Shown: positions 1 through 40,181, numbered from the stretch's first letter. The stretch is 64,000 nucleotides of DNA from an uncultured Actinomycetes bacterium (GCA_964547485.1 CAZJNU010000006.1:1863-65862), one strand, 5' to 3'. Program-made: numbers and translations. The notes: generated by a model from the letters alone, not told the origin.

Positions 1-1
1 A

Positions 2-541
2 GACAAGACCGCGAGTTTGCAGCAGAAGGCAGCATCGTTGAAGAAGCAGTCGGAAGAGCTAGATGCGAAGCGCAACGAGCTTCAGACGCTGTCAGAGAAA
101 CTCCCCGACGATGCTGGTGTAGCTCAGATCCTCAATCAGATTTCGTCGGCGTCTGCTCGCGCCGGTGTGACGGTTAACTCCTTTACTCCAGGGGCTCCGA
201 CGCCGCTCGTGGCGCCCGTGCCGGCGGCGGCCGCAACAGCGGATGCAAGTGGTTCGGAAGGAGGCACCCCTTCGGCCGCACCCTCGGCCGCCCCGGTGAG
301 CAAACTCAGTTATGTTCCCGTGACGATCGCAGTCGAAGGGACGCCGACCCAGGTGTCGGCCTTCGTCACCAACCTGGAGAACATCACGCGGGCGATGCTG
401 ATCACTAATCTCGATCTGACTTCGAGCGCGGGCGAGCAGGGCAGCACTCTCACCGCGAACATCCAGGGTCGGATCTTCATGCGGCCGACGGGTACCGGCA
501 AGACCACTGCTTCTGCGAGCCCTTCGCCCGCAGCCTCCTAG
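2..541 (+). CDS. pilO: PilO-like type IV pilus assembly protein (5' partial)
   Basis: The frame is open to the window edge. N-terminal coiled coil (LKKQSEELDAKRNELQTLSEKLP), then GVTVNSFTPG and a C-terminal VPVTIAVEGTPTQVSAFVTNLENITRAMLITNLDL pattern typical of PilO-family proteins. Confidence 0.55.
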   Translation, partial: DKTASLQQKAASLKKQSEELDAKRNELQTLSEKLPDDAGVAQILNQISSASARAGVTVNSFTPGAPTPLVAPVPAAAATADASGSEGGTPSAAPSAAPVSKLSYVPVTIAVEGTPTQVSAFVTNLENITRAMLITNLDLTSSAGEQGSTLTANIQGRIFMRPTGTGKTTASASPSPAAS

Positions 542-611
542 ACCCGCACCGGTTCCCGCCATGTCGCCGGACTCGCCGCGCGCGCCTGGGCAGGCATGAA
601 AGCATGGGCCC

Positions 612-1786
612 ATGCTGCGATGGTTGACCGCCGGTGAGTCACATGGTCCTGCCCTGGTGGCGATCCTCGAGGGCCTACCCGCCGAGGTATCCATAACCTC
701 CTCCGAGGTCGGCGCCCAACTGGCCCGACGGCGGCTCGGCTTCGGTCGCGGCGCGCGGATGAAGTTCGAGCAGGACGAAGTCACCTTCCTCGGTGGCGTT
801 CGCCACGGTCTTACCCAGGGTGGTCCGGTGGCGGTGCAGGTCGGCAACTCCGAGTGGCCCAAGTGGTCGGAGGTGATGAGCCCCGACCCGGTGGATGCCG
901 AGGTGCTGGCCGGACTTGCGAGATCGGCGCCTCTTACCCGCCCTCGGCCCGGTCACGCGGACCTGGTCGGGATGCAGAAGTACGGCTTCTCCGACGCCCG
1001 ACCGGTACTCGAACGCGCCAGCGCAAGGGAGACAGCCGCCCGAGTCGCGCTGGGAGCCGTCGCGCGGGCCTTCCTCGAGCAGGTGGGTCAGATCGCTGTG
1101 GGGAGCCACATCGTGGAGATCGGCAGCATCGCCACCGGCAATCCGCGGGTACCTGACCCGTGGGAGTCCGACGCGATCGACGCCGATCCCGTTCGGTGTC
1201 TCGACCCCACCACGAGCGCCGCAATGGTCGCCGAGATCGAGCTGGCCAAGTCCGAAGGGGACACGCTCGGGGGAGTCGCGGAGGTGCTCGTCTACAACCT
1301 GCCACCGGGCCTTGGTTCGCACGTTCACTGGGACCGGCGGCTGGACGCTCGGCTGGCTGCCGCACTGATGGGGATCCAGGCAATCAAGGGGGTGGAGGTC
1401 GGCGACGGTTTCACGCTTGCACGCACCCGTGGCTCGCTGGCGCAGGACGAGATCGTCAGCTCGGAGGGACGGATCCGGCGTGTTTCCGACCACTCCGGTG
1501 GCACCGAGGGCGGTATGTCGACCGGCGAGGTGCTGCGGGTGCGGGCGGCGATGAAGCCGATCTCGACCATCCCGCGGGCGCTGCGCACGATCGACACCGC
1601 CACCGGCGAACCCGCCACCGCACACAATCAGAGGTCCGACGCGTGTGCGGTACCGGCCGCCGGCGTGATCGCTGAGGCGATGGTGGCGCTGGTGATCGCT
1701 GACGCGATGTTGGAGAAGTTCGGCGGCGATTCGGTGCCGGAGACCCGCCGCAACCTGGCTTCCTATCTCGACGAATTGGATCTGAG

Positions 1787-1790
<4 letters not shown>
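612..1790 (+). CDS. aroC: chorismate synthase
   Basis: [24 protein letters not shown]-terminus and full-length similarity to AroC (392 aa). It sits in an aro operon. Confidence 0.97.
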
Positions 1791-4178
<2,388 letters not shown>

Positions 4179-4182
<4 letters not shown>

Positions 4183-5312
4183 GCGTCGACCGCGACGGCT
4201 GGCCCTCCGACACCCGTGAGCGGCTGCACGTACTCAAGAACCGCTGGCAGGCCGTCACGGATCAGTTGGCCGCGGCCGACCTTCACGGTCTGCTGCTAAC
4301 CGACCACAGCGATGTCCGTTGGCTCACAGGCTTCGCCGGCAGCAACGGTGCCGCCCTCGCGATCGCCGGCTCCGCCCCGCAACTCGCCACCGACGGCCGC
4401 TACGCAGAACAGGCGGCAGTGGAATGTCCCGGGGTCGGGCTGCTCATCACCCGGCAACTCGTCGAGCAACTGCTGATGCGCCTCCGCGAGCATTCGGTCT
4501 CCAATCTCGGCGTCGACCCAGTGTCGATGACCCTGGCCGAGTTTCGAATGCTCGGTGCGCACCCGTCGATGTTCGGGGTCCGGGTCACCGAGGTCGACTC
4601 GCCGTTGGCCGATCTGCGCCGGATCAAGGACAGCAGTGAGATCGCCAGTCTGCGGGAGGCCTGCCGCATTTCCACGGAGTCGCTGCGGGTGGTTCTGCAG
4701 GAGGTCCGGGTGGGGATGACTGAGCTCGAAGTGGCTCGGATGCTGGAGTTGACGATGGGTGAACTCGGCGCATCCGACCGGGCCTTCACCACCATCGTCG
4801 CCGCCGGGCCGAACGGCGGCGAACCCCACCACGCCCCTACTCCACGCCCGATCGAGGCGGGAGATTTCGTGACCATCGACTTCGGTGCGCTGGTGGATGG
4901 CTACCACGCGGATTGCACCCGGACCGTGATCGTCGGCGGTGACCCAGCGGACTGGCAGTCGGAGATCTACCAGGCCGTGCGTGAGGCAGCCGAGGCCGGC
5001 CGGGCGGCCGCCGTCCCCGGTGCCGAGACCAAGGCCGTCGACGCCGCCGCTCGCACGGTGATTTCCGCCGCTGGGTTTGGCGAGTTCTTCGTCCACGGTC
5101 TCGGCCACGGCGTCGGCCTGGACATCCACGAGTCGCCGATGTTGGGCGCCGCGACGACGGGTACGCTGTCTGCTGCTGTCCCCATTACCGTCGAGCCGGG
5201 GATCTACCTGCCAGGTAAGGGTGGGGTCCGGATCGAGGACACCTGCCTGGTCGGCGACGGGGGACCGGAGATCATGACGGATTTCCCGCGCGACCTGCTG
5301 CGTGTGGACTAA
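4179..5312 (+). CDS. pepQ: M24-family Xaa-Pro aminopeptidase
   Basis: Metal-binding pattern DFG...[10 protein letters not shown]...[13 protein letters not shown]...EPG...IED. Its position between aroQ and efp matches mycobacteria. Confidence 0.85.
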
Positions 5313-5326
5313 CGAAAGAGGCGCGG

Positions 5327-5884
5327 ATGGCGACCACGAACGATCTGAAGAACGGCTTGGTCCTCAAGATCGACGGCAATCTGTGGGCCGTGGTCGACTT
5401 CCAGCACGTGAAGCCGGGTAAGGGCGGGGCGTTCGTCCGGACCAAGCTCAAGAACGTCCTCACCGGCAAGGTCGTCGACCGCACCTTCAACGCCGGGGTG
5501 AAGGTGGAGACCGCCAGCGTCGACAAGCGCACGATGACGTACCTCTACAAGGACGGCTCGGACTGGGTGTTCATGGACGTCCAGACCTACGACCAACTCC
5601 CCGTGTCGGAGGCTGTCGTAGGGGAGGCGTCGAACTACTTGCTGGAGAACCAGGAAGCGATCGTCGCGGTACACGAGAGCCTGCCGATCTACATCGAGTT
5701 GCCGGCCAACGTCGAACTGACCGTCGAGTACACCGAACCCGGGCTGCAGGGCGACCGCTCTTCCGGTGGCACCAAACCGGCCAGGCTCGAGACCGGCGCG
5801 GAGATCCAGGTGCCGCTCTTCCTTGAGAACGGCGAGCGGATTCGGGTGGACACGCGCGACGGGTCGTACCTGGGCCGCGCCTAG
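5327..5884 (+). CDS. efp: elongation factor P
   Basis: [43 protein letters not shown], 185 aa. Confidence 0.97.
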
Positions 5885-6294
5885 TGGCGGCCCGCAGCAA
5901 GGCTCGCAAGCGCGCTCTGGACGTCCTGTACGAGGCCGACATTCGGGGCGTCGATCCGGTTGAGGTGCTTACCGTCCACGAGGCTGAGGCAAGCTCGCCG
6001 ATGAATCCCTATGTGCGCGAAGTCGTCACCGGAGTGGCCGACCACCGCGGCCGGATCGACGACCTGATCTCCACCTACGCCGAGGGCTGGAACCTCGACC
6101 GGATGCCCGTGGTCGACCGCAACATCCTGCGGATGGGTTGCTGGGAGGTCATGTGGGGGGAGGTGCCCGACCCGGTGGCGCTCTCAGAAGCAGTCGCGCT
6201 GGCCACTTCGCTGTCCACCGACGACTCGCCCGGATACGTGAACGGGGTGCTCGGGCGACTCGCCAAGGTGAAACCCCGCCTCACCCTCGACTGA
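5884..6294 (+). CDS. nusB: transcription antitermination factor NusB
   Basis: ARSKARKRALDVLYEADIRG N-terminus, 136 aa. The GTG start overlaps the efp stop by 1 nt. Confidence 0.94.
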   Translation: MAARSKARKRALDVLYEADIRGVDPVEVLTVHEAEASSPMNPYVREVVTGVADHRGRIDDLISTYAEGWNLDRMPVVDRNILRMGCWEVMWGEVPDPVALSEAVALATSLSTDDSPGYVNGVLGRLAKVKPRLTLD

Positions 6295-6527
6295 CACCCA
6301 CTGCCGCCCGCGGGCGCCCCGGACGGTTCGCGTCCACCTGGCCGGACGGTTCGCCGTCGTCGATTGGCGGACGCCGCCGCGTTCAATCGGCGCCCGCCTA
6401 TCACGAACGAGGGATGTGAGCGGGGTCGATTTGTCGTATCGTCTGATGTGTGTGCGGCGGGTCTTCTTGTCGCGCCGTGAATCGGCGACCGTGATCTGGC
6501 TTCAGCGGAGCCTCGGAGGAGGTCGAT

Positions 6528-8366
6528 ATGCTGGGCCACAGGCTCCGCAGGGGACCTCCGCCGGGCAATCACGCTCGGGATGAAGGCACCTCGCTGGTGG
6601 AGGCAATCATCGCGATGTTCGTGATCGCGACCGTCTTCGGGGGCCTGGCCGGGCTCCTGATCCAGTCCTTGAGTTCGCTGCGCGGCAGCAAAGACTTCGA
6701 AACCGCCACCCAACTCGTGAACCTGAAACTCGAGGAGGCCCGAGCGCTGCCCAGCGACACTCTGGACGCCGGAGCGCTGGACACCGAAGTTTCGAGCAAC
6801 GTCTCCGGAGGTCAGGAGACCCGACTCGTGGGGGTGCCCCCGGGCCCTTACACCTTCAATGGCGAGACGCTTCGGACCAACACCTCGCCATCGGCGGTCG
6901 ACACGCCGCTGAGTCCCTATCGGACCACCGAGTCCATCAACAATGTGACGTTCACGCTGTCGACTTACGCAACCGAGTGCCACCAGGCAGTCGCCTCGCC
7001 CGGCACCTGCGGACCGACCGCCTCTGCGACGACCAAGGAGATGACGAGGGTCACCGTCATTGTCAACTGGGTGCAGGGCGCCAACGCGACGCCGCGGAGT
7101 ATCACCGGCCAGACTCTCCAGTACTCGCCGACAAGTTGTCTCTCGTCAGCGACCCATCCTTTCAGCGCACCCTGCCAGGCCTTCTTTTATGGCAACGCCC
7201 GCAGTGGTGGTTCGTCATTTGCCGTAACCGGCGGACTGCCGGATTCCACCATCCTGTCCGGATCCGGGGTGGAGCAGTTCAACCTGGATCTGCCGAAGGC
7301 GAGCGCGTCGATCCAATCCGAGCAGACTGCGTCAGTCGTCACGCAGGCGTCGGCCCCGGCAATCTCGCGTAAGAACACCGGGGGGGCACTTGCCGTCGTC
7401 GCCGGCGGGCAGGTTGCCTCCGCGCAGGCAGTAAATGATCCCGGCGGCGGAGGGCCCAGCCAGTCGAACACCTTCACCGCCGCCGCTCAGACCCAGAACG
7501 TCACCGGCAGCGGGGTCACCCTGCGAGCGACGAGCTCGGCGACGACCGGCGTGGCGACCGCCAGAACTGCCGCCAGCGCAAGTCCTTCGTGCACAACCAC
7601 AACATCCGTCACCACCGTCGTGAACGGCCTGCCATGCGGGTCGGCCAGCGCCACTCCGTCGGCGGCGTCCACGCTCACCACCTTGGGAACGGTCAGCGGA
7701 GTGAACATCGCCGCGACACTCGGCTCGGTCGCCGCGCCCGGGTCGCTCACCCCGCCCCCGATCCGAGCCCATTCCGGTGCCTACACCTCCTCCGGCACCA
7801 CGGTGTGCGCAGCCGCCACAACGACCGGTTGCATGGTCGGTGACTCCGCCTCCAACACTGGCGCCGTCACCCTCGGTCAGCTTCCGCCAACCATGACGCG
7901 ACCGGGTGGGTTCACGAACGCCGTCAACATATCTGCAGAAGCCCTCAGTTCGGCCGCCGAACGGGGTCCCGGATCTCCCGTTCCCGGCACGCCCGCCGCC
8001 ACCCCGACCGCGACCGCGATGACCGTCTGGAACGGCGCGGGCTACACGGTGCTGAGCACGGCGAACCTCGTCACTGGGGCCTCACTGACGATTCCTGCGA
8101 CCAACGCGACCTCCGGCGGCGTCGTGTTCCGCATCGTCACCGGCACGGTCACGGTGGGCCCTCGCGTTGGCACCGCAGACCCGTCGGGGGGGTCGCCTGT
8201 CTGCACAAGTGGTTGTGACGCGTCATCCTCCACTACCGGCATCGCGGTCTCGATCACCTACGAGATCACTTCGGGCGGTCAGGTTGCCCAGTTCACTGTG
8301 GACTCCGTTTTCAGTGCCAGTGCGTCGTCGGCAACGTACGTGACCGCGCCCACGCCGGGGAGTTGA
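6528..8366 (+). CDS. large prepilin-signal protein (type IV pilus minor pilin / pseudopilin-like), Thr/Ser/Ala/Gly-rich
   Basis: Class III signal RDEG|TSLVEAIIAMFVIATVFGGL with Glu at +5. GGAGGA RBS sits 6 nt upstream of the ATG. The remainder is low-complexity T/S/A/G-rich (612 aa). Confidence 0.7.
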   Translation: MLGHRLRRGPPPGNHARDEGTSLVEAIIAMFVIATVFGGLAGLLIQSLSSLRGSKDFETATQLVNLKLEEARALPSDTLDAGALDTEVSSNVSGGQETRLVGVPPGPYTFNGETLRTNTSPSAVDTPLSPYRTTESINNVTFTLSTYATECHQAVASPGTCGPTASATTKEMTRVTVIVNWVQGANATPRSITGQTLQYSPTSCLSSATHPFSAPCQAFFYGNARSGGSSFAVTGGLPDSTILSGSGVEQFNLDLPKASASIQSEQTASVVTQASAPAISRKNTGGALAVVAGGQVASAQAVNDPGGGGPSQSNTFTAAAQTQNVTGSGVTLRATSSATTGVATARTAASASPSCTTTTSVTTVVNGLPCGSASATPSAASTLTTLGTVSGVNIAATLGSVAAPGSLTPPPIRAHSGAYTSSGTTVCAAATTTGCMVGDSASNTGAVTLGQLPPTMTRPGGFTNAVNISAEALSSAAERGPGSPVPGTPAATPTATAMTVWNGAGYTVLSTANLVTGASLTIPATNATSGGVVFRIVTGTVTVGPRVGTADPSGGSPVCTSGCDASSSTTGIAVSITYEITSGGQVAQFTVDSVFSASASSATYVTAPTPGS

Positions 8367-8367
8367 C

Positions 8368-8970
8368 GTGGACGCGCGCCGGAGCTCCGCTGACGACGGC
8401 ACCAGCCTCATCGAGTTGATGACCGTCATCGTCATCGCCAGCATCGTCGGGGCGATGTCCGTCTGGGCCCTTTCCAGCGTCCTGCGGGTGCAGCGGACCA
8501 TTGATTCCCGAGCCAATGCCCAGCAGCAAATGCAGATAGCGGCCGATCAAATCGGCGCTCAAGTTCGAAATGCGAACATCCTGTACCCACCCACGGCGAT
8601 CGTGGACGGCTGGGAGCTCGTGGTCTACACCCCGATCGGAAACGTCCAGAAGTGCGTTCAGTGGGAGTACCTCAACACTGGTGAGTTGCGTACCCGGTCA
8701 TGGCTGCCCAACTGGCGCAATACCGACGACAGCGTCTCGAGTTGGCGCACGTCTGCCACGGGCCTGAGCAATCAAGACATCCCCCCTTCCCCAGGAGTGG
8801 CGCCATTCGAACTCGCGCCGTTCGATCCCTACGGTGATCGACTGCTCTACATCGACCTGCGCGCCGACGGCGGGGACGACTCCGCCTTGCAGGTGCGGAC
8901 TGCGGCTGATGGGCGCAACGCCGACTTCAACTTCCCTGACACAATCTGTAACGATCGACCGCCGGAATGA
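8368..8970 (+). CDS. prepilin-signal protein (minor pilin / pseudopilin-like)
   Basis: DDG|TSLIELMTVIVIASIVGAM with Glu at +5. The GTG start lies 1 nt after the upstream stop. Confidence 0.72.
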   Translation: MDARRSSADDGTSLIELMTVIVIASIVGAMSVWALSSVLRVQRTIDSRANAQQQMQIAADQIGAQVRNANILYPPTAIVDGWELVVYTPIGNVQKCVQWEYLNTGELRTRSWLPNWRNTDDSVSSWRTSATGLSNQDIPPSPGVAPFELAPFDPYGDRLLYIDLRADGGDDSALQVRTAADGRNADFNFPDTICNDRPPE

Positions 8971-8980
8971 GGTGTCTCTG

Positions 8981-10498
8981 ATGTGGTTGGCGACCATTCA
9001 ACGCTTCCGGGAGTCACATAGCTCGGACGCCGGATTCATGCTGCCGATGGCGCTCTTTGTCACCTTGATCGCGGTGGCGGCCAGCACGCTGGTAGTGGGA
9101 ATGGTGCTGTTCTCCATCGGCCAGACGCAGATCGGTGAGGCACGGGTGCAGGACAATGTGACCGCCGAGGCGGGGCTGGATGCCGCCCTCGCGGCGCTGG
9201 AACAATCCTCCGGCACGACCCCACCGTGTGGGTTCTCCGGGACGTCCAGCGCGACGAACGGGGCCACCTTCAACGTGACCATCGAGTACTTCGCCCAGAC
9301 TCCCGCCCTGGACGGATCGGGCAACCCCATCCCGCTCACGTGCCCGTTGACGGTTAATCCGTACAACGCCATCATCACCTCGACTGGGCAGGCGACCGCG
9401 GCAGGACCGGCCGGATCGACGTCGACGCAGACGATGGAAGCCATGGTTCGGCTGCGGGCGGGAGTGGGCCCGGATCCATGGACGAACGGGTTCGCGGCGG
9501 CGGTGTCGGCTGGACGCGCGGTTACGCTGAACACGAACTGGATTGTCACGGGCGCTGGTGGCAACTTCTATGTGTTGGGCAACTTCCGCTGCAACCGGAA
9601 CCTGGCGGTGCCCGGGAACCTCTACGCTTCGGGCACGCTGAGGTTTAGTGCCAACGCCAGCACCCAGTGCACCGTCCAAGGTGACATGTGGTCAGGGAGC
9701 ACCATGACCAACGCTGACCCCTCAATCGTCACCGGCAATGTCAAAGTCAATGGCACTCTCAACGTCGCCTCCGCAGTGCTGACCGTGGGCGGTGACGCGA
9801 GCTACTTGACCCGAAGTGGTTCGGCGGCGAATCTCGACGTCCCGCCCGGGGGCGACCACGCCGGGGTGGTCGTCGGAGCCCCGCCGCTGCCGACGCAACC
9901 CAAGGTGGCCTACAACGCGGCGGATTGGACTGGGTGGAGCATCATCACTCCGGCGGCAGGCACGTTCCCGTGCTCCACAGCGGGCCCCTCAACACCTGCG
10001 TCGTGGAGTAGTCCCGCCGGGCAGACCGTCTACCGGTCCGTCTGCAACCCGGTGTGGGATGCATCAGGCAGCAACGTCACCTTGACCCTGAATGGCGACG
10101 TCACGATCATCCTCGGCAGTGCCAACAACATCAATGTGGTCGACAACTTGATTGTCTCGTCGGGTGATGCGCTGCCCCACAAACTGCGCATCGTCGTGCC
10201 GTTTGCGACCCTGACTAGCCCTTGCGCCGGTACGCCGAGTAGGACCTTTCGTCTTCAGCGACAGCTCACTGTCAACTCACCTATTTCGGCACTTCTCTAC
10301 ACCTCGGGGAGATTTGACAATGCGGGGACGTCCATTGTGCGGGGCCAAGTTTTCGCGTGCGGAATCAACTCCACCGGTACCGGCAACATGACACTGGACT
10401 ACCAGACCGTCGGTATGCCAAGTTCCGCAAGTTCGGGTGGCGCCGGGACGGGGAATTACGAGGCGGACGTGCTGTATCGCCGCGACGTCGTGGGCTAG
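8981..10498 (+). CDS. PilX-N-like pilus-associated protein with repetitive beta-rich C-terminal region
   Basis: The internal ATG at 8981 follows GGAATGAGGTG. SDAG|FMLPMALFVTLIAVAASTLVVGM is a hydrophobic N-terminus without Glu+5, as in PilX-type proteins. The track ORF start at 8834 overlaps the preceding gene. Confidence 0.6.
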   Translation: MWLATIQRFRESHSSDAGFMLPMALFVTLIAVAASTLVVGMVLFSIGQTQIGEARVQDNVTAEAGLDAALAALEQSSGTTPPCGFSGTSSATNGATFNVTIEYFAQTPALDGSGNPIPLTCPLTVNPYNAIITSTGQATAAGPAGSTSTQTMEAMVRLRAGVGPDPWTNGFAAAVSAGRAVTLNTNWIVTGAGGNFYVLGNFRCNRNLAVPGNLYASGTLRFSANASTQCTVQGDMWSGSTMTNADPSIVTGNVKVNGTLNVASAVLTVGGDASYLTRSGSAANLDVPPGGDHAGVVVGAPPLPTQPKVAYNAADWTGWSIITPAAGTFPCSTAGPSTPASWSSPAGQTVYRSVCNPVWDASGSNVTLTLNGDVTIILGSANNINVVDNLIVSSGDALPHKLRIVVPFATLTSPCAGTPSRTFRLQRQLTVNSPISALLYTSGRFDNAGTSIVRGQVFACGINSTGTGNMTLDYQTVGMPSSASSGGAGTGNYEADVLYRRDVVG

Positions 10499-10693
10499 GT
10501 GCTACTCCCGCGAGGCCGGATTCGTGGCGCCTCGTCCCACTGCGCGGCCACGCGGCCGCCCGAACGCAGGCTGGTCGGTCCGCTGGCGCCGTTGTCGGTC
10601 CGGCCGGCCTCACCCTCGTCCGGCGGAGGGTGCCGCGTTCGGTCCGGCGGGCCACGCAGCGTTCGGTCAGGCGGAGGGTGCCGCGTTCGCAAG

Positions 10694-11671
10694 TCAGGGG
10701 CCCAGGCGACAGCCAGCGCCGCAGGCCTCTGGCGTGCCATGCCAGCCGCGCGCCACCAGGACGGCGGCGATCTCGGCGGCGCACTCACAAGCCCTCTCGT
10801 GGACGTCCTGCCACCCGTATCGCAACGGCACCCTGCCGGTCCGCGCAACAAAGTTGTCGCGGCGATTGTCGCGTAGCCGACCTGTTGGATCCGAGTGTCC
10901 CAGGCGACCATCGAACTCGATCACTATCCCGAAAGGCTCCAGCACGCGATCGCGCAGCACAGTCGCGCCGTCTTGCGACTCCCGCACTTGGCCTCGTCCG
11001 GTGGGCAAGCCATGGGCACGGAGTACCAGACGCACGCCATCCACTTCAAGCGTGCTGGTGGCGCCTCCCCTGATCTCTGCGATCAGACTCGTGAGCAGCG
11101 CGCGGTGGCGACACGAACCGCGGGCGGCAATGGCGCGCTCAAACGAACGCAGTCGGAACCGTCGATGCTGGCCGACGCTCGTGACCGCGTCGATGACGTC
11201 CCGCTCGCCGTCGGTGTCAATGACCATGTCCAAAAGTGCGTGCTCAAGCTCGACTGTGGGTGGGAATCCCCGCGGCGACCGTACCGGCCGCGGGGCCCAG
11301 TAGCGCTGGACGCGTAATTCTTCCGGAGGCTTGCGCAGTCTGCGGGCTCCTGGGATGGCGATCTCCACAGGCAGTTGTGGAGCCCTCAGGCCCCACGCCT
11401 GCAAAGCGGAGGCCCGGGTCAGGCGGGAGGCGTCGCCGGCGTACAGGTGGGCAGCCCACCACCAGGCTGCCATGTCGGGTTCACCGGTCACGGTGTTGTA
11501 GACACCGGGCAACAGCCTCGCCCATCGGCTGGCTGCGATCTGACCGCGGATTCTGCAGTCCGTCCACCCGATGCTGAGCAACTGCTGCCGACTCACCACT
11601 CCGCCCTGCGGCGCTGCCCGGCGTGCGATGTCGGCATGTCTACTGCCGGCTGGGGGAGTTGTCGCTGTCAC
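10694..11671 (-). CDS. AbiEi-N-like / DUF559 endonuclease-like domain protein
   Basis: N-terminal GVVSRQQLLSIGWTDCRIRGQIAASRWARLLPGVY. C-terminal IEFDGRLGHSDPTGRLRDNRRDN...PLRYGWQDV is typical of DUF559 proteins. Confidence 0.78.
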   Translation of the reverse strand: MTATTPPAGSRHADIARRAAPQGGVVSRQQLLSIGWTDCRIRGQIAASRWARLLPGVYNTVTGEPDMAAWWWAAHLYAGDASRLTRASALQAWGLRAPQLPVEIAIPGARRLRKPPEELRVQRYWAPRPVRSPRGFPPTVELEHALLDMVIDTDGERDVIDAVTSVGQHRRFRLRSFERAIAARGSCRHRALLTSLIAEIRGGATSTLEVDGVRLVLRAHGLPTGRGQVRESQDGATVLRDRVLEPFGIVIEFDGRLGHSDPTGRLRDNRRDNFVARTGRVPLRYGWQDVHERACECAAEIAAVLVARGWHGTPEACGAGCRLGP

Positions 11672-11720
11672 TGCTCAACCCTGGTGTGCGCGTTGGCCAG
11701 GTCCAAGGCCTGAGCCGCCG

Positions 11721-11812
11721 CCTGTGCGTAACCCGGCGCCTGCGGCGCCCCGCCACCTGCGGTGCCCAACAACCTGTGCGTAACCCGGCGCCCCACCACC
11801 TGCGGTGCCCAA
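11721..11812. repeat. two imperfect tandem direct repeats (about 50 and 40 bp)
   Basis: CCTGTGCGTAACCCGGCGCC...CACCTGCGGTGCCCAAC occurs at 11721-11770 and 11773-11812. The first copy carries a 9-10 nt insertion. Confidence 0.85.
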
Positions 11813-11872
11813 CCAGAGCGCACAGTTGGGACTCAGCGATGCGCTGAAGGCCGCGCATCGAAATGCAGAATG

Positions 11873-11946
11873 TGCCCCCGGTGGGATTCGAACCCACACT
11901 GGCGGGATTTTGAGACCCGTGACTCTGCCGGTTGGTCTACAGGGGC
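11873..11946 (-). tRNA. tRNA, 74 nt with no encoded CCA; anticodon loop CUCAAAA (anticodon CAA as read); isotype uncertain
   Basis: Minus-strand cloverleaf: acceptor GCCCCUG/CGGGGGC (one G-U pair), D loop with GG, anticodon stem CGGGU/UCCCG (U-U at the loop-closing pair), 5-nt variable region, canonical T arm GUGGG-UUCGAAU-CCCAC. The plus-strand reading gives a C-A mismatch and a non-canonical T loop. Confidence 0.8.
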
Positions 11947-12153: not shown

Positions 12154-12189
12154 TGCTGAGTAACCACTGCATGGCACGCGTAAGCGCCG

Positions 12190-12339
12190 CCAGAGGGCGA
12201 TGGAACACGCCGCCGGAACGCGATGGGAGGCCGCCAGAACGCGATGGGAGGCCGCCGGAACGCGATGGGAGGCCACCGGAGCGCGATGGGAGGCCACCGG
12301 AGCGCGATAGAACGCTGCCGGAACGCGATGGGAGGCCAC
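12190..12339. repeat. 21-bp tandem repeat, about 7 copies (minisatellite)
   Basis: The unit CGCCGGAACGCGATGGGAGGC starts at 12211, 12232, 12253, 12274, 12295 and 12316. A degenerate copy lies at 12190. Copies 0 and 5 share a GCGAT(G/A)GAAC variant. Confidence 0.9.
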
Positions 12340-12426: not shown

Positions 12427-13104
12427 GTGCCAAACCAACCTTCCCGCCACGCCCAGCCAGGCCGCGCGGGTCCGGGGGCAGAGACGGCGGCAACCACAAC
12501 ACAGGCCGCCGGCCGGGGGTCGGGATCCGCACCGCGGGTGCGGGTGGTGGTGGCCGAGGATGAGGCGCTGATCAGGATGGACCTAGTCGAGATGCTCGCC
12601 GAGGAGGGCTACGAAGTCGTCGGTCAGGCGGCGACGGGGGAGGCAGCGGTGGCGTTGGTGGAGCGGCTGCGGCCCGACGTCGTGCTGCTCGACGTACGGA
12701 TGCCCGTGATGGACGGAATCACCGCGGCCGAAGCCATCACCGCTCGACATGGGTGTGCGATCGTCATGCTGACCGCCTTCAGTGAACGCGAACTCGTGGA
12801 GCGCGCCGCGGAGGCGGGAGCGGCGGCGTACCTCGTGAAGCCAGTTTCGGCGGTGCACCTGATCCCGGCGATCGAGGTCGCGCGCGCGCGGCGGTCGGAG
12901 GCGGCTGCGCTCTCGGCTGAGGTAGAGACGCTCGAGCTGCGCCTTGCGGCGCGGAAGGTCATCGAGCGGGCCAAGGGGATCCTCATGCGGGACTTTGGCC
13001 TCGACGAGGCTGGCGCGTTCGCGTGGTTGCGTCGGGAAGCGATGGACCGCCGAATGTCGATGGCCGACGTTGCAGAGGTTGTCACGCGAGACGACAACGC
13101 CTGA
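12427..13104 (+). CDS. pdtaR: ANTAR-domain response regulator (PdtaR-like)
   Basis: Receiver RVVVAEDEALIRMDLVEMLAEEGYEVVG...VLLDVRMPVMDG, plus C-terminal ANTAR KVIERAKGILMRDFGLDEAGAFAWLRREAMDRRMSMADVA. The start codon is uncertain and may be downstream of 12427. Confidence 0.85.
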   Translation: MPNQPSRHAQPGRAGPGAETAATTTQAAGRGSGSAPRVRVVVAEDEALIRMDLVEMLAEEGYEVVGQAATGEAAVALVERLRPDVVLLDVRMPVMDGITAAEAITARHGCAIVMLTAFSERELVERAAEAGAAAYLVKPVSAVHLIPAIEVARARRSEAAALSAEVETLELRLAARKVIERAKGILMRDFGLDEAGAFAWLRREAMDRRMSMADVAEVVTRDDNA

Positions 13105-32356: not shown

Positions 32357-33195
32357 TTCCGCCGATAGAGCCGGGAGCGCTGGTCGATCGTGTCCAGTTG
32401 TCGGGCATGCGCCGAACCGCGAGAGGACTCCCGAGAGCCGAGCCCAAGCACGCCGCCTGGGACCAGCGACTCGAACAGAATCTCGTGCACCCGGGCGTGC
32501 AGTTCGGCGTTGAAGTAGATCAGCACATTGCGACACAAAATGAGATCGAACGAATTGAAGCTGGCATCGGATGCGAGGTTGTGCCGGGCGAAAACGATGC
32601 GCTCGCTGAGCGTCCGGTCGAACAGGGGTTCCTCGCCGGTCGACCCGCCGCCGGAGATTGGGAAGTAGTCGGCCAGGGCTGCGGTGCCGCCGCTTGCGAG
32701 GTAGTCATGGTTTCCGGCTGAGATACGGTCCGGAGCGACGAAACCGGCGCGCGCCTGGGCGAGGGACTGCTCGTTGATGTCGGTTGCGTAGATCCGGAAC
32801 CGCTGTGGTGACAACCCGCTCTCGACGAGGGTGATGGCCAACGAGTAGGCCTCCTCGCCGGTGGCCGCACCCGCCACCCAGGCGCGGACCAGGGTGCGGG
32901 AGTCGAAGGCCGGCAGCACGTCCGAACGCAGTGTGGCCCACATGCCTGGATCTCGGAACAGGTGGGTGAAACCCAGGCTCAGGGAGTCGATGACATCATC
33001 GACCAGCAGCGGGTTCTCCCCGACCCGCGCGGCCAACTCTGTGACGCCGCCGTTCATCCGGTGGCGGTCGGCGACGCGCCGGAGTCGCCGGATCACGAAC
33101 GGGCGTTGGTAATTGTTGAAGTCGGCGCCGCGGGTGGCCAGCACGGCAGCCAGCACGTGATCGACCGCGCCGTCGAGTTCAGCGGGTTCGAGCAC
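32350..33195 (-). CDS. cheR: CheR-type protein-glutamate O-methyltransferase
   Basis: THLFRDPGMW, RAWVAGAATGEEAYSLAI, IYATDIN, ILCRNVLIYF. Overlaps the kinase gene end by 17 nt. Confidence 0.85.
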   Translation of the reverse strand: MLEPAELDGAVDHVLAAVLATRGADFNNYQRPFVIRRLRRVADRHRMNGGVTELAARVGENPLLVDDVIDSLSLGFTHLFRDPGMWATLRSDVLPAFDSRTLVRAWVAGAATGEEAYSLAITLVESGLSPQRFRIYATDINEQSLAQARAGFVAPDRISAGNHDYLASGGTAALADYFPISGGGSTGEEPLFDRTLSERIVFARHNLASDASFNSFDLILCRNVLIYFNAELHARVHEILFESLVPGGVLGLGSRESSRGSAHARQLDTIDQRSRLYRRKW

Positions 33196-36100
33196 CGAGC
33201 CACACCCGGATCAGGGACACCAACTGTTCGGCATCGATTGGCTTCGTCAGGTAGTCCGAGGCCCCCGAGGCCAGGCTCCGGGCCCGGTCCTCCGGCATGG
33301 CCAAGGCGGTCACGCTGATCACCGGAAGTTGCGCCGTCGCGGGGTTGGACCGGATTCGCCGGGTGGCCTCCAGCCCATCCATCACCGGCATCATTACGTC
33401 CATCAGTACAAGTTCCACGTCACCACGTTCGGCGAGCACGGCCAGTGCCTGCTGGCCATCCTCGGCGTCCAGGACCTCCATCTCGTGTTGCTCCAGGATC
33501 GTTGCAAGAGAGAAGACATTCCGTGGATCGTCGTCGACAACCAGCACCACCCGGCCGGCCAGGTCGGGGTCCCGTTCGTAGAGCGCGGCCACCATCTGCT
33601 GCTGCTCGGCAGGCAGATCGGTCGAGACTCGATGCAGGAACCGAATCGTCTCGTCGATGAGTCGGGCATGGGCACTTTGATCCTTGGCGATCACTGCGCT
33701 CGCCACATGTTTCAACTCCGCCAGCCCGCCGGTGCTTTCGTCCGGGTCGTAGAACACGATCAACGGCAGGGACTGGCTGAGCGGTTCCTCACGCAGTGCC
33801 CGCAGCACGGACTGACCATCGTCACCCGCGGTCGCCAGGTCCACCACGACTGCGTCGAATCCTCGTTCCCTTATCGCGGGCAGAGCTGTCGTCACATCGG
33901 TGAACACCTGCACGTCAAGGTCGCCGCCGCGCAGTAGTGACGAAACGGCGGTCGCCTCATCGGGGTCCGACTCCACGACTACCACCCGCCGCGGCTGACC
34001 TGCCAGCATCTGGGTGAACCTGTGCAGCACCCCGGCGATGTCGGCCGCCGCAGCCGGCTTGATGAGGGTGCCATTGACGCCCAGCGCTGCCAGCGCGGAC
34101 TCTGAACCGGAGATTATCTGCACCGGCGTGTGCCGGGTCTGCTGGTCGTGTCGAATCCGATCGAGGAGTACCCAACCGTCCATGTCCGGCAAACCGAGGT
34201 CGAGCGTGATCGCATCGGGGGCGCGTGCCGCGAGGAATTCCAGCGCCTGCTGGCCGCTGCCCGCGATCTCGGTGTGGAACCCCAGAGCACGCGCCTCGTC
34301 CGCGATCAGCGAGGCGAACAACGGGTCATCCTCAATGATCAAAAGAACCGAGCCAGCTGGATCGACTGTCTCCGGCTGAGTCTGACTTTCAGCGCCGGGT
34401 CGGACTTCGGTCACGGGGGTTGGCACAGGCATCTCTACACTTGCGGCCGCTGCTGGCGGGTGGAGAAACGCCGATCCGCTCCCAGCTGGTCCGTCAGCAG
34501 CAGGTGGAGCAGCCGTGGCCATCTGGCCGCTGTCTGTCGATGCGGCAGGAGGGCCTGCGATAGGCAGCGTTAATTCGAACTGCGAACCGACCCCCTGCTC
34601 GCTTCGGACGACGAGGTCGCCGCCCATCTTCCGTGCCAGTTCCTGCGCGATCGACAGTCCCAGTCCCGTACCGGCGGTGGTGTGGCCGCGGGCGTTACCC
34701 AGTTGTTTGAACGGTTCGAACACCGCGGCGAGGTTTTCCTCGGCGATCCCGGACCCGGTGTCAGCAACTGTGAAGGAGACGAATTCGCCACTGACCGCGA
34801 CCGTCAGGTCCACTGATCCCACGATCGTGAACTTCACCGCATTGGACAGCAGGTTCTTCAGGATCTGCTCGACTCGTAGCCGATCTGACACGATCGAATC
34901 CGGCGTACCCGGACTGACGCTGATCCCCAGCTGGAGTCCCTTCTCCTCGGCAAGGGGTCGGAACTGGCGGTTCAGCGCTGCGCAGACGGCCTCGATCGGC
35001 ACCTGTTCGGCAGCAATGTCGATCTTCCCCGCCTCCACCTTTGACAGGTCGAGGACATCGTTGATCAACGCCAGCAAGTCCTTGCCGCAGGCGTTGATGG
35101 TGGCCGCGAATTCCACCCGACGCTCCACCGGAAGCGACTCCGGACTCTTCACGAGCCGCTCGCTGAGGATGAGCACGCTGTTCAACGGAGTACGCAATTC
35201 GTGCGACATCTTGGCCAGGAAGGCCGACTTGTAGGCCGAGGCCTGGTCCACGATCTCGGTGCGGAGCAGCAGATCCTGGTGCGCCTGCTCAAGTGCCACA
35301 TTGCGCTCGGCGAGGGCGGCCTGCTGTTCCTCCATCAGCGCGGCCCCCTCCTCCAGGCCTACATTGGCGTCCTCCAACTCCCGTGACTGCGACTCCAGTT
35401 CCTCCGTCTGAGACTGCAGCTCCTCTGCCTGGGCCTGGAGTTCCTCGGACTGCGCCTGTGCCTCCTCGAGGAGTTCAAGGGTCCGTTGCTGAGCGTGGCG
35501 GACGGCCAGGTGCAGTCCGATCAGGTCCGCCGACTGGGTCAGCACTTCGCGGGCTTCGGCCTCGAAGGTCCCGAATGTGGCGACCTCCAAAACGCCCAGG
35601 GTCTTTCCGCCTGCGACGCAGGGGATCACCGCAATCTGGGCGGGCTTCGCGGCGCCAAGAGCTGACTCGACAGTCAGATAGTCGGCTGGAGCCGCCATGA
35701 ACCTGGCCTGCTGATCTGCGGCTGCCTGGCCCACCAGCCCCTCGAGGAATGCGATCCGCTCGGGAACCCGGTGACCGTCGCTGGCTCCGACAGCCGCGAC
35801 CCGGACCAGCGTCTGTTGGTCAGTCCGCGCCGTCTCATACAGCACTGCGGTAGGGGCCTCGGCGGACATGGCCAGCAGCGTGAGTACCTCGTCGTCAGCC
35901 GTGCTGGCATCGCTCTCGCCCTGCATGCTGCGGCTGATCCCGAGCAGGGTCTCCTGCACCCGATCGTCGGCATCCCGGGCGTCCCTGGCGCCGGCGAGCG
36001 ATGTTCGCATCGCGTCGATCTTCGTGCCGAGTGAACCCAATTCGTCTCGACCAGTGACGGTCACCGGCGAGTCGAGCTTGCCCGCGCCGATGAGGTCGGC

Positions 36101-36775
36101 ACTGCCCTCCAGCAACTTGAACCGGCGTGACAGGTTGCGCCCCAGGATGACCAGCAGGATCGTGCTGCTGGCCGCAATCAACAGCAGTACGCCGTAGAGG
36201 ATGTACTGGGTTGTGGTGAGCTCGTCGGAGAGCTCTGTCGAGATCCGATCTCTGATTCCCTGTGCATGTTCGACGTTGATGAACTGGTCGAGTTCCTGCG
36301 TGAGCTGGTCATGAGTTGCAGGATTCTGCGCGACGGCGATGAACGGCTGCAGGACGGAACGCGGCGCCTCGCCGGTTGCCACCCGGTCGGCCGCCGTGAG
36401 CGCAGGGTCGACGGTCCCATCCACCCAGGACTGCACCGAGGCGAAGACCGCTGCGTCCTGGGATGTCGGATCAGTCGCAATTACATTCGAGATCGCCTGG
36501 TCGATCCTGTTGATCTCCTCCTTGGCGCGTGCTCGCCAGACGGGATTGAGTGTCGTCAGGTAGTCGGTGCGGGCGGCGTCGAGGCTCTCCACCGCCAACT
36601 GCATCGCGCGCAACTCGCGGACGTCGGAGGTGGCCACGGTCAGTTGGTCATTCAGTTGCTCGGCCCGGCCGACCGCACTGATCGCGACCGCGCCGCCAGC
36701 GGCACCCAGCAGCAGCGTGCAGCCCAGCACCAGGCCAACCTTCACCGGGATCTTCCGGTTGTCCAGCCAACTCAT
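33179..36775 (-). CDS. hybrid sensor histidine kinase: TM, helical extracytoplasmic sensor, TM, HAMP, GAF, coiled coil, HisKA, HATPase, three receiver domains
   Basis: Two TM segments flank a helical domain of about 170 aa. HAMP region (RRFKLLEGSADLIGAGKLDSPV). H-box FLAKMSHELRTPLNS. N/G boxes NLLSNAVKF and DTGSGI, GTGLGLSI. Receivers at LLIIEDDP..., VVVVESDP... and VLVVDDDP...MDVMMPVMDG. Confidence 0.9.
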   Translation of the reverse strand: MSWLDNRKIPVKVGLVLGCTLLLGAAGGAVAISAVGRAEQLNDQLTVATSDVRELRAMQLAVESLDAARTDYLTTLNPVWRARAKEEINRIDQAISNVIATDPTSQDAAVFASVQSWVDGTVDPALTAADRVATGEAPRSVLQPFIAVAQNPATHDQLTQELDQFINVEHAQGIRDRISTELSDELTTTQYILYGVLLLIAASSTILLVILGRNLSRRFKLLEGSADLIGAGKLDSPVTVTGRDELGSLGTKIDAMRTSLAGARDARDADDRVQETLLGISRSMQGESDASTADDEVLTLLAMSAEAPTAVLYETARTDQQTLVRVAAVGASDGHRVPERIAFLEGLVGQAAADQQARFMAAPADYLTVESALGAAKPAQIAVIPCVAGGKTLGVLEVATFGTFEAEAREVLTQSADLIGLHLAVRHAQQRTLELLEEAQAQSEELQAQAEELQSQTEELESQSRELEDANVGLEEGAALMEEQQAALAERNVALEQAHQDLLLRTEIVDQASAYKSAFLAKMSHELRTPLNSVLILSERLVKSPESLPVERRVEFAATINACGKDLLALINDVLDLSKVEAGKIDIAAEQVPIEAVCAALNRQFRPLAEEKGLQLGISVSPGTPDSIVSDRLRVEQILKNLLSNAVKFTIVGSVDLTVAVSGEFVSFTVADTGSGIAEENLAAVFEPFKQLGNARGHTTAGTGLGLSIAQELARKMGGDLVVRSEQGVGSQFELTLPIAGPPAASTDSGQMATAAPPAADGPAGSGSAFLHPPAAAASVEMPVPTPVTEVRPGAESQTQPETVDPAGSVLLIIEDDPLFASLIADEARALGFHTEIAGSGQQALEFLAARAPDAITLDLGLPDMDGWVLLDRIRHDQQTRHTPVQIISGSESALAALGVNGTLIKPAAAADIAGVLHRFTQMLAGQPRRVVVVESDPDEATAVSSLLRGGDLDVQVFTDVTTALPAIRERGFDAVVVDLATAGDDGQSVLRALREEPLSQSLPLIVFYDPDESTGGLAELKHVASAVIAKDQSAHARLIDETIRFLHRVSTDLPAEQQQMVAALYERDPDLAGRVVLVVDDDPRNVFSLATILEQHEMEVLDAEDGQQALAVLAERGDVELVLMDVMMPVMDGLEATRRIRSNPATAQLPVISVTALAMPEDRARSLASGASDYLTKPIDAEQLVSLIRVWLGARTR

Positions 36776-37815
36776 GACTGCCGGCCTTCGCCAGACTCTT
36801 CCGCACCGGAGATGACCAGGCCGGAGCCCGCCTTCTTCGCCTCATACATGGCCCGGTCGGCCGCCGCCAGGATCTGGTCGATCGTGACGTTGTGGGACGC
36901 GAGGTGCAGAGCGAGGCCGACGCTGCCCGGTGCCGCAACGAATCGGCCGTCACTGAGTTGGTAGTCGGCGGCGAGCGCCCCGTGGATCCGCTCGCCCATA
37001 CTTGCGAGGTCGTCGTCATCCTGGATCTCCTGCACGACGACGCAGAACTCGTCACCGCCGAGCCGGGCCACCAGGTCGTACGGTCGCGCGATGCCGCGAA
37101 GTCGGCCTGCAGCCAGCACCAGGACCTCATCACCCGCCGCATGGCCCAGCGTGTCGTTGATCGTCTTGAATCCGTCCAGATCGATCACTGCCACCCCGTG
37201 ATGGCGGCCGGAGCGCTGCTGGTGGGCGCGGACTGCCGCCAGCGAATTCATCAGTTGCCGACGATTCATCAGGGAGGTGAGTGGGTCTGTCGCGGCAAGC
37301 AACTGCAAGTTCGCGTTGGCCTCCGACAATTGCTGTTCAATCGCCCGAAGCCGATCCCGTTGCCGTTCGATTTGCTTCAACTGTTGGGCGAGGGTGCAGA
37401 AGACGTTGACCTTTGACTGCAGAATCTGCGGTACGACCGGCTTCGACAGGTAGTCCACCGCCCCCAGGTCGTACCCGGCCGACATCGCGTCGTCATTGAA
37501 CGCGTACCCGGTGACGAACAGGATGGGTGTCGTTGCCAGTCGAGGATTTGCCCGGACCAGGCCGGCGAGCTCGAACCCCGTCATGTCGCCGAGGTTGACA
37601 TCGAGCAGGATCGCCGCAGGTGTGGTCTTGCGCAGCAGCCGCAGCGCTTCCGTTCCGGATGCGGCGAACACCAGTTCCCGGTCCGGTTCGGCGAGCAGAT
37701 CGCCGATGAGCAGATTGGCGTTGGGATCGTCATCGATCACCATCACCACGACGGGATCGATCGGCTCGGTTGGTGCCTCCGACTCAGCCACCTGTGACCC
37801 TTTCGATCGTGCCAC
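36772..37815 (-). CDS. response regulator with GGDEF diguanylate cyclase output
   Basis: Receiver VVMVIDDDP...LLDVNLGDMTG...KP. GGDEF active site RLGGDEF with an RPYD (RxxD I-site) 5 residues upstream. The stop overlaps the kinase start (ATGA). Confidence 0.9.
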   Translation of the reverse strand: MARSKGSQVAESEAPTEPIDPVVVMVIDDDPNANLLIGDLLAEPDRELVFAASGTEALRLLRKTTPAAILLDVNLGDMTGFELAGLVRANPRLATTPILFVTGYAFNDDAMSAGYDLGAVDYLSKPVVPQILQSKVNVFCTLAQQLKQIERQRDRLRAIEQQLSEANANLQLLAATDPLTSLMNRRQLMNSLAAVRAHQQRSGRHHGVAVIDLDGFKTINDTLGHAAGDEVLVLAAGRLRGIARPYDLVARLGGDEFCVVVQEIQDDDDLASMGERIHGALAADYQLSDGRFVAAPGSVGLALHLASHNVTIDQILAAADRAMYEAKKAGSGLVISGAEESGEGRQS

Positions 37816-39100: not shown

Positions 39101-40042
39101 TCATCCTGCGACGGGAGCTGCTTGCTGTTGCGGTGCGCGGGCAGTCGGTCCGCCGCTGGCAATCCGATCGCGCAGCATCGCCCGATCGATGGCGACGCCG
39201 TCAGTGGACTCCAGGAATCCCAACACAGTCCTGGCGAATCGCGCCGGCTCATCCATGTGCGGGAAATGCCGCGACTGCTCGAAGATCTCCAATTGGCTGC
39301 CCGGGATCGCCTGGTGAGCCGCATAGGCGTGGGAGACCGGGATGAGGGTGTCCAACGCACCCCAGACAATCAGAGTGGGGCGACCCTCGCCGAGGTAGAG
39401 CCGGTCGGCTGCGCTGACACGCTGGCCACCTGGTTCGACCACACTGCGCAGCGAGTGCACGAACGCCGTCCGGGCAGGTCCGTCTGCCAGTGACGCGTAG
39501 CCGCGTGCCACCTCGGCCACCGATGGCCGGGGTCGAATCGGGACTCGCCGAAGCAGGCGGCCGACTGCCACCCCAGCGTCGCGGACCCGGCGATTGGCGA
39601 TCACCGGCAGGACGAACTCGGCGCCGGGCAGGGTGGCGGCCCGCAGCGCCGGGGTCACCTCGCGGCCGAGACCGCCACTATCCACCAGCACTACCCGCTC
39701 GCAGTACTCGCTGTACTGATAGGCGAATTGCAGAGCCACGCCGCCGCCGAGGGAGTGCCCGACGATGGTGACCCGATCGTGGCCGAGGTGTTCCAGCAGG
39801 TCGCGCAGGCCGCTAGCGAACCCGCCAAGGGAGTAGTCGGTGCGGGGCTTGTCCGACTCGCCATGGCCCAACAGATCGGGCGCGATCACGTGCGCGTGCT
39901 CTGCCAATGCCGGGATCACCGGGTCCCAGGTGGCGCTGCTGCTGGTGATCCCATGAATCATCAGCAGCACGGGCAGGTTGGGGTCGCCCGCGACTCGGTA
40001 CACCATTCTGTGCCCGTGCAGGGTCACCTCTGTCTGTTGCAT
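39101..40042 (-). CDS. alpha/beta-fold hydrolase
   Basis: LLMIHGITSSSATW, nucleophile elbow GHSLGG, 313 aa. Confidence 0.85.
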   Translation of the reverse strand: MQQTEVTLHGHRMVYRVAGDPNLPVLLMIHGITSSSATWDPVIPALAEHAHVIAPDLLGHGESDKPRTDYSLGGFASGLRDLLEHLGHDRVTIVGHSLGGGVALQFAYQYSEYCERVVLVDSGGLGREVTPALRAATLPGAEFVLPVIANRRVRDAGVAVGRLLRRVPIRPRPSVAEVARGYASLADGPARTAFVHSLRSVVEPGGQRVSAADRLYLGEGRPTLIVWGALDTLIPVSHAYAAHQAIPGSQLEIFEQSRHFPHMDEPARFARTVLGFLESTDGVAIDRAMLRDRIASGGPTARAPQQQAAPVAG

Positions 40043-40181
40043 GGCGACCTCCTATTGCTGGTCATCCCAGCAGACCATGCCAGCGGCGCCTGCCGACACC
40101 CGGGGGTCGCGGTTGCCCCGGACGCAACGGCGCAGCAGGCCGGTTAGCTGCCGAATTAGTCACAGTCTAGAGTCAATCCCT

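Follow-up and report, generated by a model that had tools for sequence, protein, structure and literature searches.

A probable type IV minor-pilin cassette downstream of nusB in an uncultured Actinomycetes bacterium, the second of two diverged copies

Three consecutive genes (here g1, g2 and g3) follow nusB in a 64,000-nucleotide stretch of DNA from an uncultured Actinomycetes bacterium (GCA_964547485.1, CAZJNU010000006.1:1863-65862; hereafter the window), and all three open with what resembles the N-terminus of a type IV prepilin. This raises the question of whether their products are pilin-like subunits at all and, if so, of which machine and in which position. We conclude that g1-g2-g3 is very probably a conserved actinobacterial three-gene type IV minor-pilin cassette, encoding a priming and tip complex. 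A sequence-only reading of the locus had described a pseudopilin module, and this core interpretation is supported as essentially right, since prepilin motifs and profiles, the structural model of g3, the presence of pilD and pilMNO, and synteny in relatives all agree with it. Nor does the module stand alone: this genome has two paralogous cassettes, and the window holds the second.

The prepilin signals can be read directly. The three plus-strand open reading frames (ORFs), their tight spacing and their prepilin N-termini were found just as the sequence-only reading had described them, with translationally coupled starts (Table 1); g3 has an alternative GTG start at 8972, 1 base past the g2 stop, and 233 nt separate the end of nusB from g1. 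Each protein begins with a class III signal, consisting of a short charged leader, Gly-1 and a hydrophobic stretch of about 20 residues. In g1 (...HARDEG↓TSLVEAIIAMFVIATVFGGLAGLL, the arrow marking the expected cleavage site) cleavage is expected between G20 and T21 and Glu+5 is E25; in g2 (...SSADDG↓TSLIELMTVIVIASIVGAMSV) the corresponding residues are G11, T12 and E16, so that the two canonical G↓TSL(V/I)E signals with Glu+5 claimed from sequence are indeed there. The g3 N-terminus (...HSSDAG↓FMLPMALFVTLIAVAASTLVVGMVLF, with DAG↓FMLPMALFVTLIAVAASTLVV at the signal) is expected to be cut between G18 and F19 and continues after the Gly as FMLPMALFVTLIAV..., as against TSL(V/I)E in g1 and g2; Glu+5 is absent. 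When all six frames of the window were scanned for G-x4-E with a run of at least 14 hydrophobic residues behind it, four matches came up, of which only those in g1 and g2 stand at an ORF start. Every paralogue and homologue examined has the signal motif, even three whose start was called downstream of it, and in-frame sequence 5' of the shortened g1 gene calls brings back G↓SMLVE or G↓FALME. No aligned member of the g1 and g2 families departs from Gly-1 and Glu+5 (Glu+5 in 15 g1 sequences, at E25, and in 7 g2 sequences, at E16), and Glu+5 is absent from g3 and all nine g3 relatives inspected, as expected of a cap subunit.

Scans of g1, g2 and g3 themselves against Pfam and NCBIfam gave sub-threshold matches only, and the profile signal came from family-wide scans. 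Among g1 relatives, 6 of 15 matched N_methyl (PF07963; best E = 3.9e-6), and 5 of 7 g2 relatives matched IV_pilin_GFxxxE (TIGR02532; best E = 7.3e-6). In the g3 family, PilX_N (PF14341) was matched by 7 of 60 members (best E = 8e-5), Bactofilin by 5 and DUF7305 by 2, the window g3 itself being without a PilX_N match. With PilX_N matched in some relatives, the proposal that the third protein has a PilX-like start lacking Glu+5 holds.

The machine to which these proteins may belong becomes visible upstream. Through the window's AroC we found contig L001, whose positions 9144-11679 are 100% identical to window positions 1-2536 (2536 nt); the two are therefore the same DNA, and L001 adds 9.1 kb on the upstream side of the window. 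On this contig an IS110 transposase gene comes first, followed by genes of 607, 198 and 543 aa and then by pilD, pilM, pilN, full-length pilO and aroC. The pilD product (A24_N_bact 126 bits, Peptidase_A24 49 bits) is of PilD type and encoded about 9 kb upstream, and pilM and pilN score 93.6 and 36 bits; PilD, PilM, PilN and PilO of a type IVa system are all encoded on the same DNA. The sequence-only reading had asked for a prepilin peptidase elsewhere in the genome and had named the lack of one as a ground for refutation; the gene lies upstream of aroC, beside pilM, pilN and pilO, and the reading is not refuted on that point. The 607-, 198- and 543-aa genes align colinearly, over their full length, with their paralogues g1, g2 and g3 (38%, 44% and 32% identity, E from 2e-61 to 5e-94), and their N-termini are G↓MSLVE, G↓FSLIE and G↓YVMLMAMF. 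On either side of pilDMNO-aroCKBQ-pepQ-efp-nusB the genome thus has a cassette, the two being diverged, and a housekeeping block stands between the pil genes and the window cassette. At the other end of the contig, the IS110-family transposase (L001:608-1852; DEDD_Tnp_IS110 and Transposase_20) lies directly against the start of the other cassette, where the contig comes to its end; this element may have separated the L001 cassette from whatever once lay upstream. In the relative L011 the same upstream position is occupied by divergent DAO oxidoreductase and hexapeptide-transferase genes instead of IS110.

Relatives point to where such a cassette belongs. Wherever homologues of g1 (15 from a word-index search) or of g3 were seen, they belonged to a trio of about 583-612, 198-239 and 466-543 aa. 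Two g3-family members of greater distance, on L013 and L014, lie within complete type IV pilus loci. In L013 the order is alaS-ruvX-mltG, pilB (571 aa), pilT (381 aa), pilC (403 aa), pilA (161 aa, KG↓FTLIEL), genes of 597, 217 and 476 aa that match g1, g2 and g3 (E = 1e-27, 3e-20 and 7e-23), pilD-pilM-pilN-pilO, pepQ-efp-nusB and pyr genes. In L014, from a Cellulomonas metagenome-assembled genome (MAG), a T2SSE ATPase gene and pilC are followed by small pilins of 138 and 128 aa, genes of 218 and 545 aa, pilD-pilM-pilN-pilO, aroC-aroK-aroB, efp-nusB and pyr genes; the pilin of 128 aa is similar to residues 1-57 of mature g1. The pilO-aro...efp-nusB order recurs in L003, L004, L013 and L014. Judged from this gene order, the ancestral place of the cassette is between the major pilin gene and pilD, the place that the L001 copy holds, and with pilA-[g1-g2-g3]-pilD as the canonical arrangement the copy after nusB is an extra, displaced one. 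Cassettes also follow nusB in the close relatives L003 and L004, follow the suf operon in L005, L006 and L008, and stand elsewhere in L007, L009 and L010; one homologue at 39% identity is annotated Candidatus Nanopelagicales. Identity among the A, B and suf-linked cassettes is roughly equal (38-43%). A recent duplication is ruled out by this equidistance together with the 32-44% identity between the paralogues. The two cassettes of this genome are old paralogues, and their co-existence suggests alternative tips on one machine. In L015 (178-10369) a variant cassette of 211, 199 and 505 aa lies divergent from a full chemosensory operon encoding a methyl-accepting chemotaxis protein (MCP), CheA, CheW, CheY, CheB, CheR and CheX, which may point to a Pil-Chp-like system controlling pilus-based motility in some actinobacteria.

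The AlphaFold2 (AF2) model of g3, made from a 60-sequence alignment, has a predicted local distance difference test score (pLDDT) of 86.5 and shows the pilin fold, a long alpha1 helix with an antiparallel sheet. The features expected of a cap pilin coincide in it: no Glu+5, a predicted solenoid, and then a conserved last strand. Eight Cys are invariant or nearly invariant in the family alignment. In a Foldseek comparison with the PDB, the top match of the model was Thermus thermophilus ComZ (6qvi; E = 6e-6, probability 1.0), followed with weak scores by tapirins and ice-binding solenoids. In sequence, the g3 family profile matches the solenoid of the ice-binding protein FfIBP (E = 0.003), the fold named as the closest relative of ComZ's own solenoid (PMC6561018). 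The beta-helix that the sequence-only reading had suspected from beta-type segments thus reappears as the modelled solenoid, with ComZ as the best solved match of the protein. A word-index search with g3 recovered only 4 proteins; an exhaustive hidden Markov model (HMM) search recovered 1005 clusters at 50% identity (E <= 1e-3), 146 of them at E <= 1e-30 and most of them full-length at 460-540 aa. The family is without a model of its own in Pfam or NCBIfam.

For g1, the AF2 model (14 sequences, pLDDT 73) likewise shows a pilin fold: a helix and a pilin sheet come first, and everything from there to residue 605 is beta structure. In the family alignment seven Cys are invariant or nearly invariant (204, 216, 355, 370, 427, 435 and 563); the window protein has ten, with C151, C161 and C559 in addition, at positions that fit five pairs, and its beta module is probably stabilised by disulfides. 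The sequence-only reading had seen in g1 a low-complexity stalk dominated by Thr, Ser, Ala and Gly. The bias is real (these residues make up 52%, vs 34% in neighbouring proteins), but local entropy is reduced only slightly, and the predicted beta fold, the conserved Cys and strong purifying selection all stand against a stalk. The protein is compositionally biased yet ordered, and is therefore not a disordered stalk. Size in the family ranges from 128 aa in L014 and 211 aa in L015 to about 600 aa in the window, and g1 therefore behaves as a pilin with a grafted module. Its alignment with the L001 paralogue is colinear at 38% identity, a structure comparison found no solved structure resembling it, and its 91% orthologue carries the JGI label 'Tfp pilus assembly protein PilV'.

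In the family of the small g2, C96 is invariant and 6 of 7 members have a Cys opposite C194. Against solved structures, the family profile matched only alpha1N of type IV pilins (E of about 0.005). Relatives gave weak matches to GspH (6 of 7, best E = 7e-7), to HpsC (5 of 7) and to PpdC- or GspJ-type models. Against the GspH equivalog TIGR01708, g2 reached 21.1 bits (E = 2.5e-4), far below the cut-off of 80 bits; this is resemblance only, and g2 is therefore not filed as GspH. By its sequence it weakly resembles GspH/FimU.

In ComZ, one of the closest known systems, a beta-solenoid like that of FfIBP interrupts a GspK-like pilin domain ahead of its last strand, and the tip position of ComZ was argued sterically (PMC6561018). 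Like ComZ of T. thermophilus HB27 (which acts with PilA1-3) and like cyanobacterial PilX, g3 has about 500 aa with alpha1, a pilin sheet and a triangular ice-binding-like solenoid; as with ComZ, the gene is, in relatives, the last of a minor-pilin operon near the major pilin gene, and its product is proposed as a cap. Unlike ComZ, to which it is about 13-14% identical with a low structural similarity score, g3 is poor in Lys and has an extra C-terminal beta domain (aa 320-474) as well as the eight conserved Cys, and the host is a monoderm actinobacterium without a secretin, with a three-gene partner set rather than four. In monoderm Streptococcus sanguinis, three tip minor pilins, one small and two modular, replace PilHIJK (PMC10191384), and the grafted module of its PilB is a vWA-like domain (bioRxiv 10.1101/2021.01.27.428410). 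The resemblance to S. sanguinis PilA/PilB/PilC lies in the monoderm setting, in one small and two large subunits with grafted modules and in the tip position, which is here proposed; on the other hand, no sequence similarity was detected, the window genome has two paralogous sets, and the modules are a beta-solenoid (g3) and a Cys-rich beta module (g1). With GspH-GspI-GspJ-GspK and FimU-PilV-PilW-PilX the cassette shares class III signals, a Glu5-less cap subunit, operon organisation and the proposed priming role, along with the weak GspH-, GspJ- and PpdC-type matches of the g2 family and the PilV label of the g1 orthologue. It differs from these diderm type II secretion and type IVa pilus sets in having three genes instead of four, no PilY1 and matches far below equivalog cut-offs, and g1 is three to four times as large as PilV or PilW.

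From these comparisons we infer a course of cleavage, complex formation, tip location and alternative-tip use. Core minor pilins elsewhere form a tip complex capped by a Glu5-less subunit, and the assembly of a filament begins with that complex (PMC10191384). In the window's organism, PilD would cut each leader after the Gly, and the three mature subunits would join in the membrane through their hydrophobic alpha1 helices. On the PilM/N/O-PilC platform the complex would then prime polymerisation of the major pilin, and because pili grow from the base it would end at the tip. There g3 would be the cap, presenting a ComZ-like beta-solenoid; with nothing above it, Glu+5 would not be needed. Beneath it g1 and g2 would dock by salt bridges from Glu+5 to the N-terminus, and g1, as a modular pilin, would show its beta module of about 400 residues at the tip. 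In cyanobacteria, two minor-pilin sets with a beta-solenoid PilX prime two pili, one for competence and one for motility (bioRxiv 10.64898/2026.02.12.705559). The two cassettes described here probably give one machine two alternative tips that differ in binding specificity or function. A broader and more speculative possibility, which we put forward tentatively, is that one PilD-PilMNO machine primed by either cassette makes two distinct filaments (for example for DNA uptake vs adhesion or motility), that the g1 module is a new adhesin fold without a solved relative, and that the suf- and che-linked cassettes are exchangeable 'tip modules'.

Several observations weigh against a minor-pilin cassette serving a type IV pilus. 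Against N_methyl the window proteins reach 12.8 and 15.2 bits (cut-off 21.2), and against TIGR02532 11.3 bits (cut-off 16.3). The global template modelling score (TM-score) between g3 and ComZ is only 0.23. None of pilB, pilC, pilT and a major pilin gene was found in 73 kb (the 64-kb window plus 9 kb upstream), so that we assume the extension machinery to be encoded in another part of the genome; within the window, no pil gene was found beyond pilO and the cassette, and neither it nor the 9 kb upstream shows a class III signal on a gene of the size of a major pilin, as the sequence-only reading had remarked of its own stretch. In the window's lineage the region upstream of the other cassette holds IS110 or unrelated genes. 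In some relatives, as where it follows the suf operon, the cassette is remote from all pil genes, so that its link to one particular machine is not obligatory. The sub-threshold scores, together with the lack of a solved structural neighbour for g1, could be taken to mean that the N-termini are ordinary signal anchors, the outcome that the sequence-only reading had named as fatal to itself, and the proteins membrane-tethered adhesins apart from type IV filaments, or else Tad/Flp-type pseudopilins. We find this scarcely credible, given that Gly-1 and Glu+5 are invariant in the g1 and g2 families, that relatives pass the prepilin profile tests, and that the g2 family profile matches alpha1N of solved pilins. 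Neither the three proteins nor their families gave a TadE or Flp match in profile scans, the neighbours of the cassette are pilD and pilMNO rather than tad genes, the adjoining peptidase is of PilD type with an A24 N-terminal domain, and in canonical loci the cassette sits between pilA and pilD.

Should the trio be pilins, the copy after nusB might still be a redundant or decaying duplicate without a current role, its pilus extension genes lost or scattered. The absence from the 73 kb of pilB, pilT, pilC and pilA, which flank the cassette in relatives, fits such decay, as does the IS110 element abutting the other cassette. So does the g1 orthologue of L003 (7544-9386; MAG GCA_964269095.1, 94% identical), which is out of frame past about 80 codons, has 7 gap positions relative to the window and was given 473 aa by the gene caller; the frameshift could be due to faulty assembly or mark a pseudogene. 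In comparison with L004 (86-91% protein identity), however, the ratio of nonsynonymous to synonymous substitution rates (dN/dS) is 0.066 for g1, 0.062 for g2 and 0.091 for g3 at a dS of about 0.9-1.0, in the same range as the housekeeping neighbours aroC, efp, pepQ and nusB (0.03-0.10), so that the cassette genes are being maintained. Frames are intact, starts are coupled, the ribosome-binding site is strong, and the leader and all Cys positions checked are conserved; with paralogues just 32-44% identical, both cassettes must have been kept for long. Decay is on these grounds very improbable. A less remote alternative, although still an unlikely one, is that the cassette supplies the tip of a short pilus or pseudopilus specialised for competence, with g3 a ComZ-like DNA receptor for natural transformation. 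The best solved match of g3 is, after all, a DNA-binding tip pilin essential for Thermus transformation (PMC6561018), one of the two cyanobacterial minor-pilin sets serves competence pili (bioRxiv 10.64898/2026.02.12.705559), and no major pilin gene lies beside the window copy. A match in fold does not establish a DNA receptor, though: ComZ binds DNA via lysines (PMC6561018), whereas g3 has about 0.6% Lys and a net negative charge, and the beta-solenoid is as well a generic PilX 'tip plug' or adhesin fold (bioRxiv 10.64898/2026.02.12.705559). None of comEA, comEC and dprA occurs in the window. We therefore retain the minor-pilin cassette with a priming and tip role as the best account of g1-g2-g3.

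Table 1. Coordinates of the cassette, its predicted protein features and the genes before it (window positions; residues counted from each start codon)
Feature	Position	Strand	Residues	Remarks
pilO, 3' part	2..538	+		cut by window start; Pfam PilO 58.9 bits vs cut-off 22
aroC-aroK-aroB-aroQ-pepQ-efp-nusB	612..6294	+		housekeeping block; Pfam and NCBIfam matches
nusB-g1 leader	6295..6527	+		TATCGT (TANNNT-type) box and GGAGGAGG ribosome-binding site
g1	6528-8366	+	612 aa	ATG start behind GGAGGAGG ribosome-binding site; probable giant modular minor pilin
g1 leader peptide	6528-6587		1-20
g1 alpha1 helix			15-72	AF2 prediction
g1 pilin sheet			about 113-198	AF2 prediction
g1 conserved C204...C216 loop	7137-7175		204-216	reads CLSSATHPFSAPCQ
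g1 beta-rich module	7182-8342		219-605	about 400 residues; further Cys pairs
g2	8368-8970	+	200 aa	GTG start 1 base past g1 stop; probable small minor pilin
g2 leader peptide			1-11
g3	8981-10498	+	505 aa	probable PilX/GspK/ComZ-type cap pilin
g3 leader peptide			1-18
g3 alpha1 helix			17-75	AF2 prediction
g3 pilin sheet			84-160	four-stranded; AF2 prediction
g3 beta-solenoid	9503-9865		175-295	predicted; short strands, period about 6 residues
g3 C-terminal beta domain			320-474	predicted
g3 final strand			492-503	predicted; Y..D..Y.RD, the family's most conserved C-terminal motif

The displaced cassette probably has its own expression signals. The last ~147 nt of the nusB-g1 spacer (6391-6527) are 86% identical to L004 and the 5' part has diverged; the 3' part is more conserved than synonymous coding sites. 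This conservation, together with the TANNNT-type box, suggests that the cassette has its own promoter, and by its sequence the spacer probably holds that promoter and a 5' untranslated region. A riboswitch or structured RNA was considered for the leader and rejected (no Rfam family, fold z = 0.43). In Rubrobacter, pili are controlled by a WhiG/sigma-28-type promoter; no match to such a promoter with <=3 mismatches was found upstream of g1, and a simple promoter and terminator scan gave nothing relevant. Composition gave no signal of horizontal transfer of the cassette in this high-GC window (about 0.62-0.69): its GC content of 0.65-0.67 is like that of its flanks, and GC at third codon positions (GC3) is 0.77-0.79 vs 0.78-0.92.

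Past the cassette, the window's gene order departs from that of other actinobacteria. A tandem repeat of 24/48 bp in 2-3 copies (10595-10689) lies about 100 nt past the g3 stop, before a 325-aa ORF convergent to g3. This ORF region (10694-11946, minus strand) is kept in L003 and L004 and adjoins tRNA-Leu(CAA) at 11872-11946; the ORF has no significant family match, the best being a weak C-terminal one to REase_MTES_1575 (E = 0.14). Given that pyrR-pyrB follows nusB in other actinobacteria, the stretch 10694-11946 marks a rearrangement point. Farther on, a 21-bp unit (GCCGCCGGAACGCGATGGGAG) is repeated about 6 times with 87% matches at 12186-12337, in the spacer 5' of an ANTAR response-regulator gene (12427-13104). 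At 33179-37815 on the minus strand lie genes for a hybrid histidine kinase of 1198 aa (HAMP-GAF-HisKA-HATPase and three receiver domains) and, after it, a receiver-GGDEF diguanylate cyclase. Cyclic di-GMP controls pili in other actinobacteria; no link between these genes and the cassette is shown. An unusual fusion at 39978-42548 on the plus strand joins a COX15/CtaA heme A synthase to cupredoxin and multicopper-oxidase domains in one protein of 856 aa. A complete respiratory nitrate reductase operon, narG-narH-narJ-narI, occupies 44722-51438 on the minus strand, adjoined by a gene for an HPP-family membrane protein.

Type IV pili of actinobacteria have barely been studied, and their minor pilins are essentially unannotated, the three genes being usually called 'hypothetical'. 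A g3 family of more than 1000 clusters that has no Pfam or NCBIfam model of its own is an annotation gap, and a cassette of 600, 200 and 500 aa between pilA and pilD offers a simple rule for annotating such loci. Our findings leave the general view of type IV filament priming as it was. What they add is that the beta-solenoid PilX/ComZ cap, seen before in Thermus and cyanobacteria, is now seen in monoderm actinobacteria as well, and that a genome with two diverged cassettes may have alternative pilus tips.

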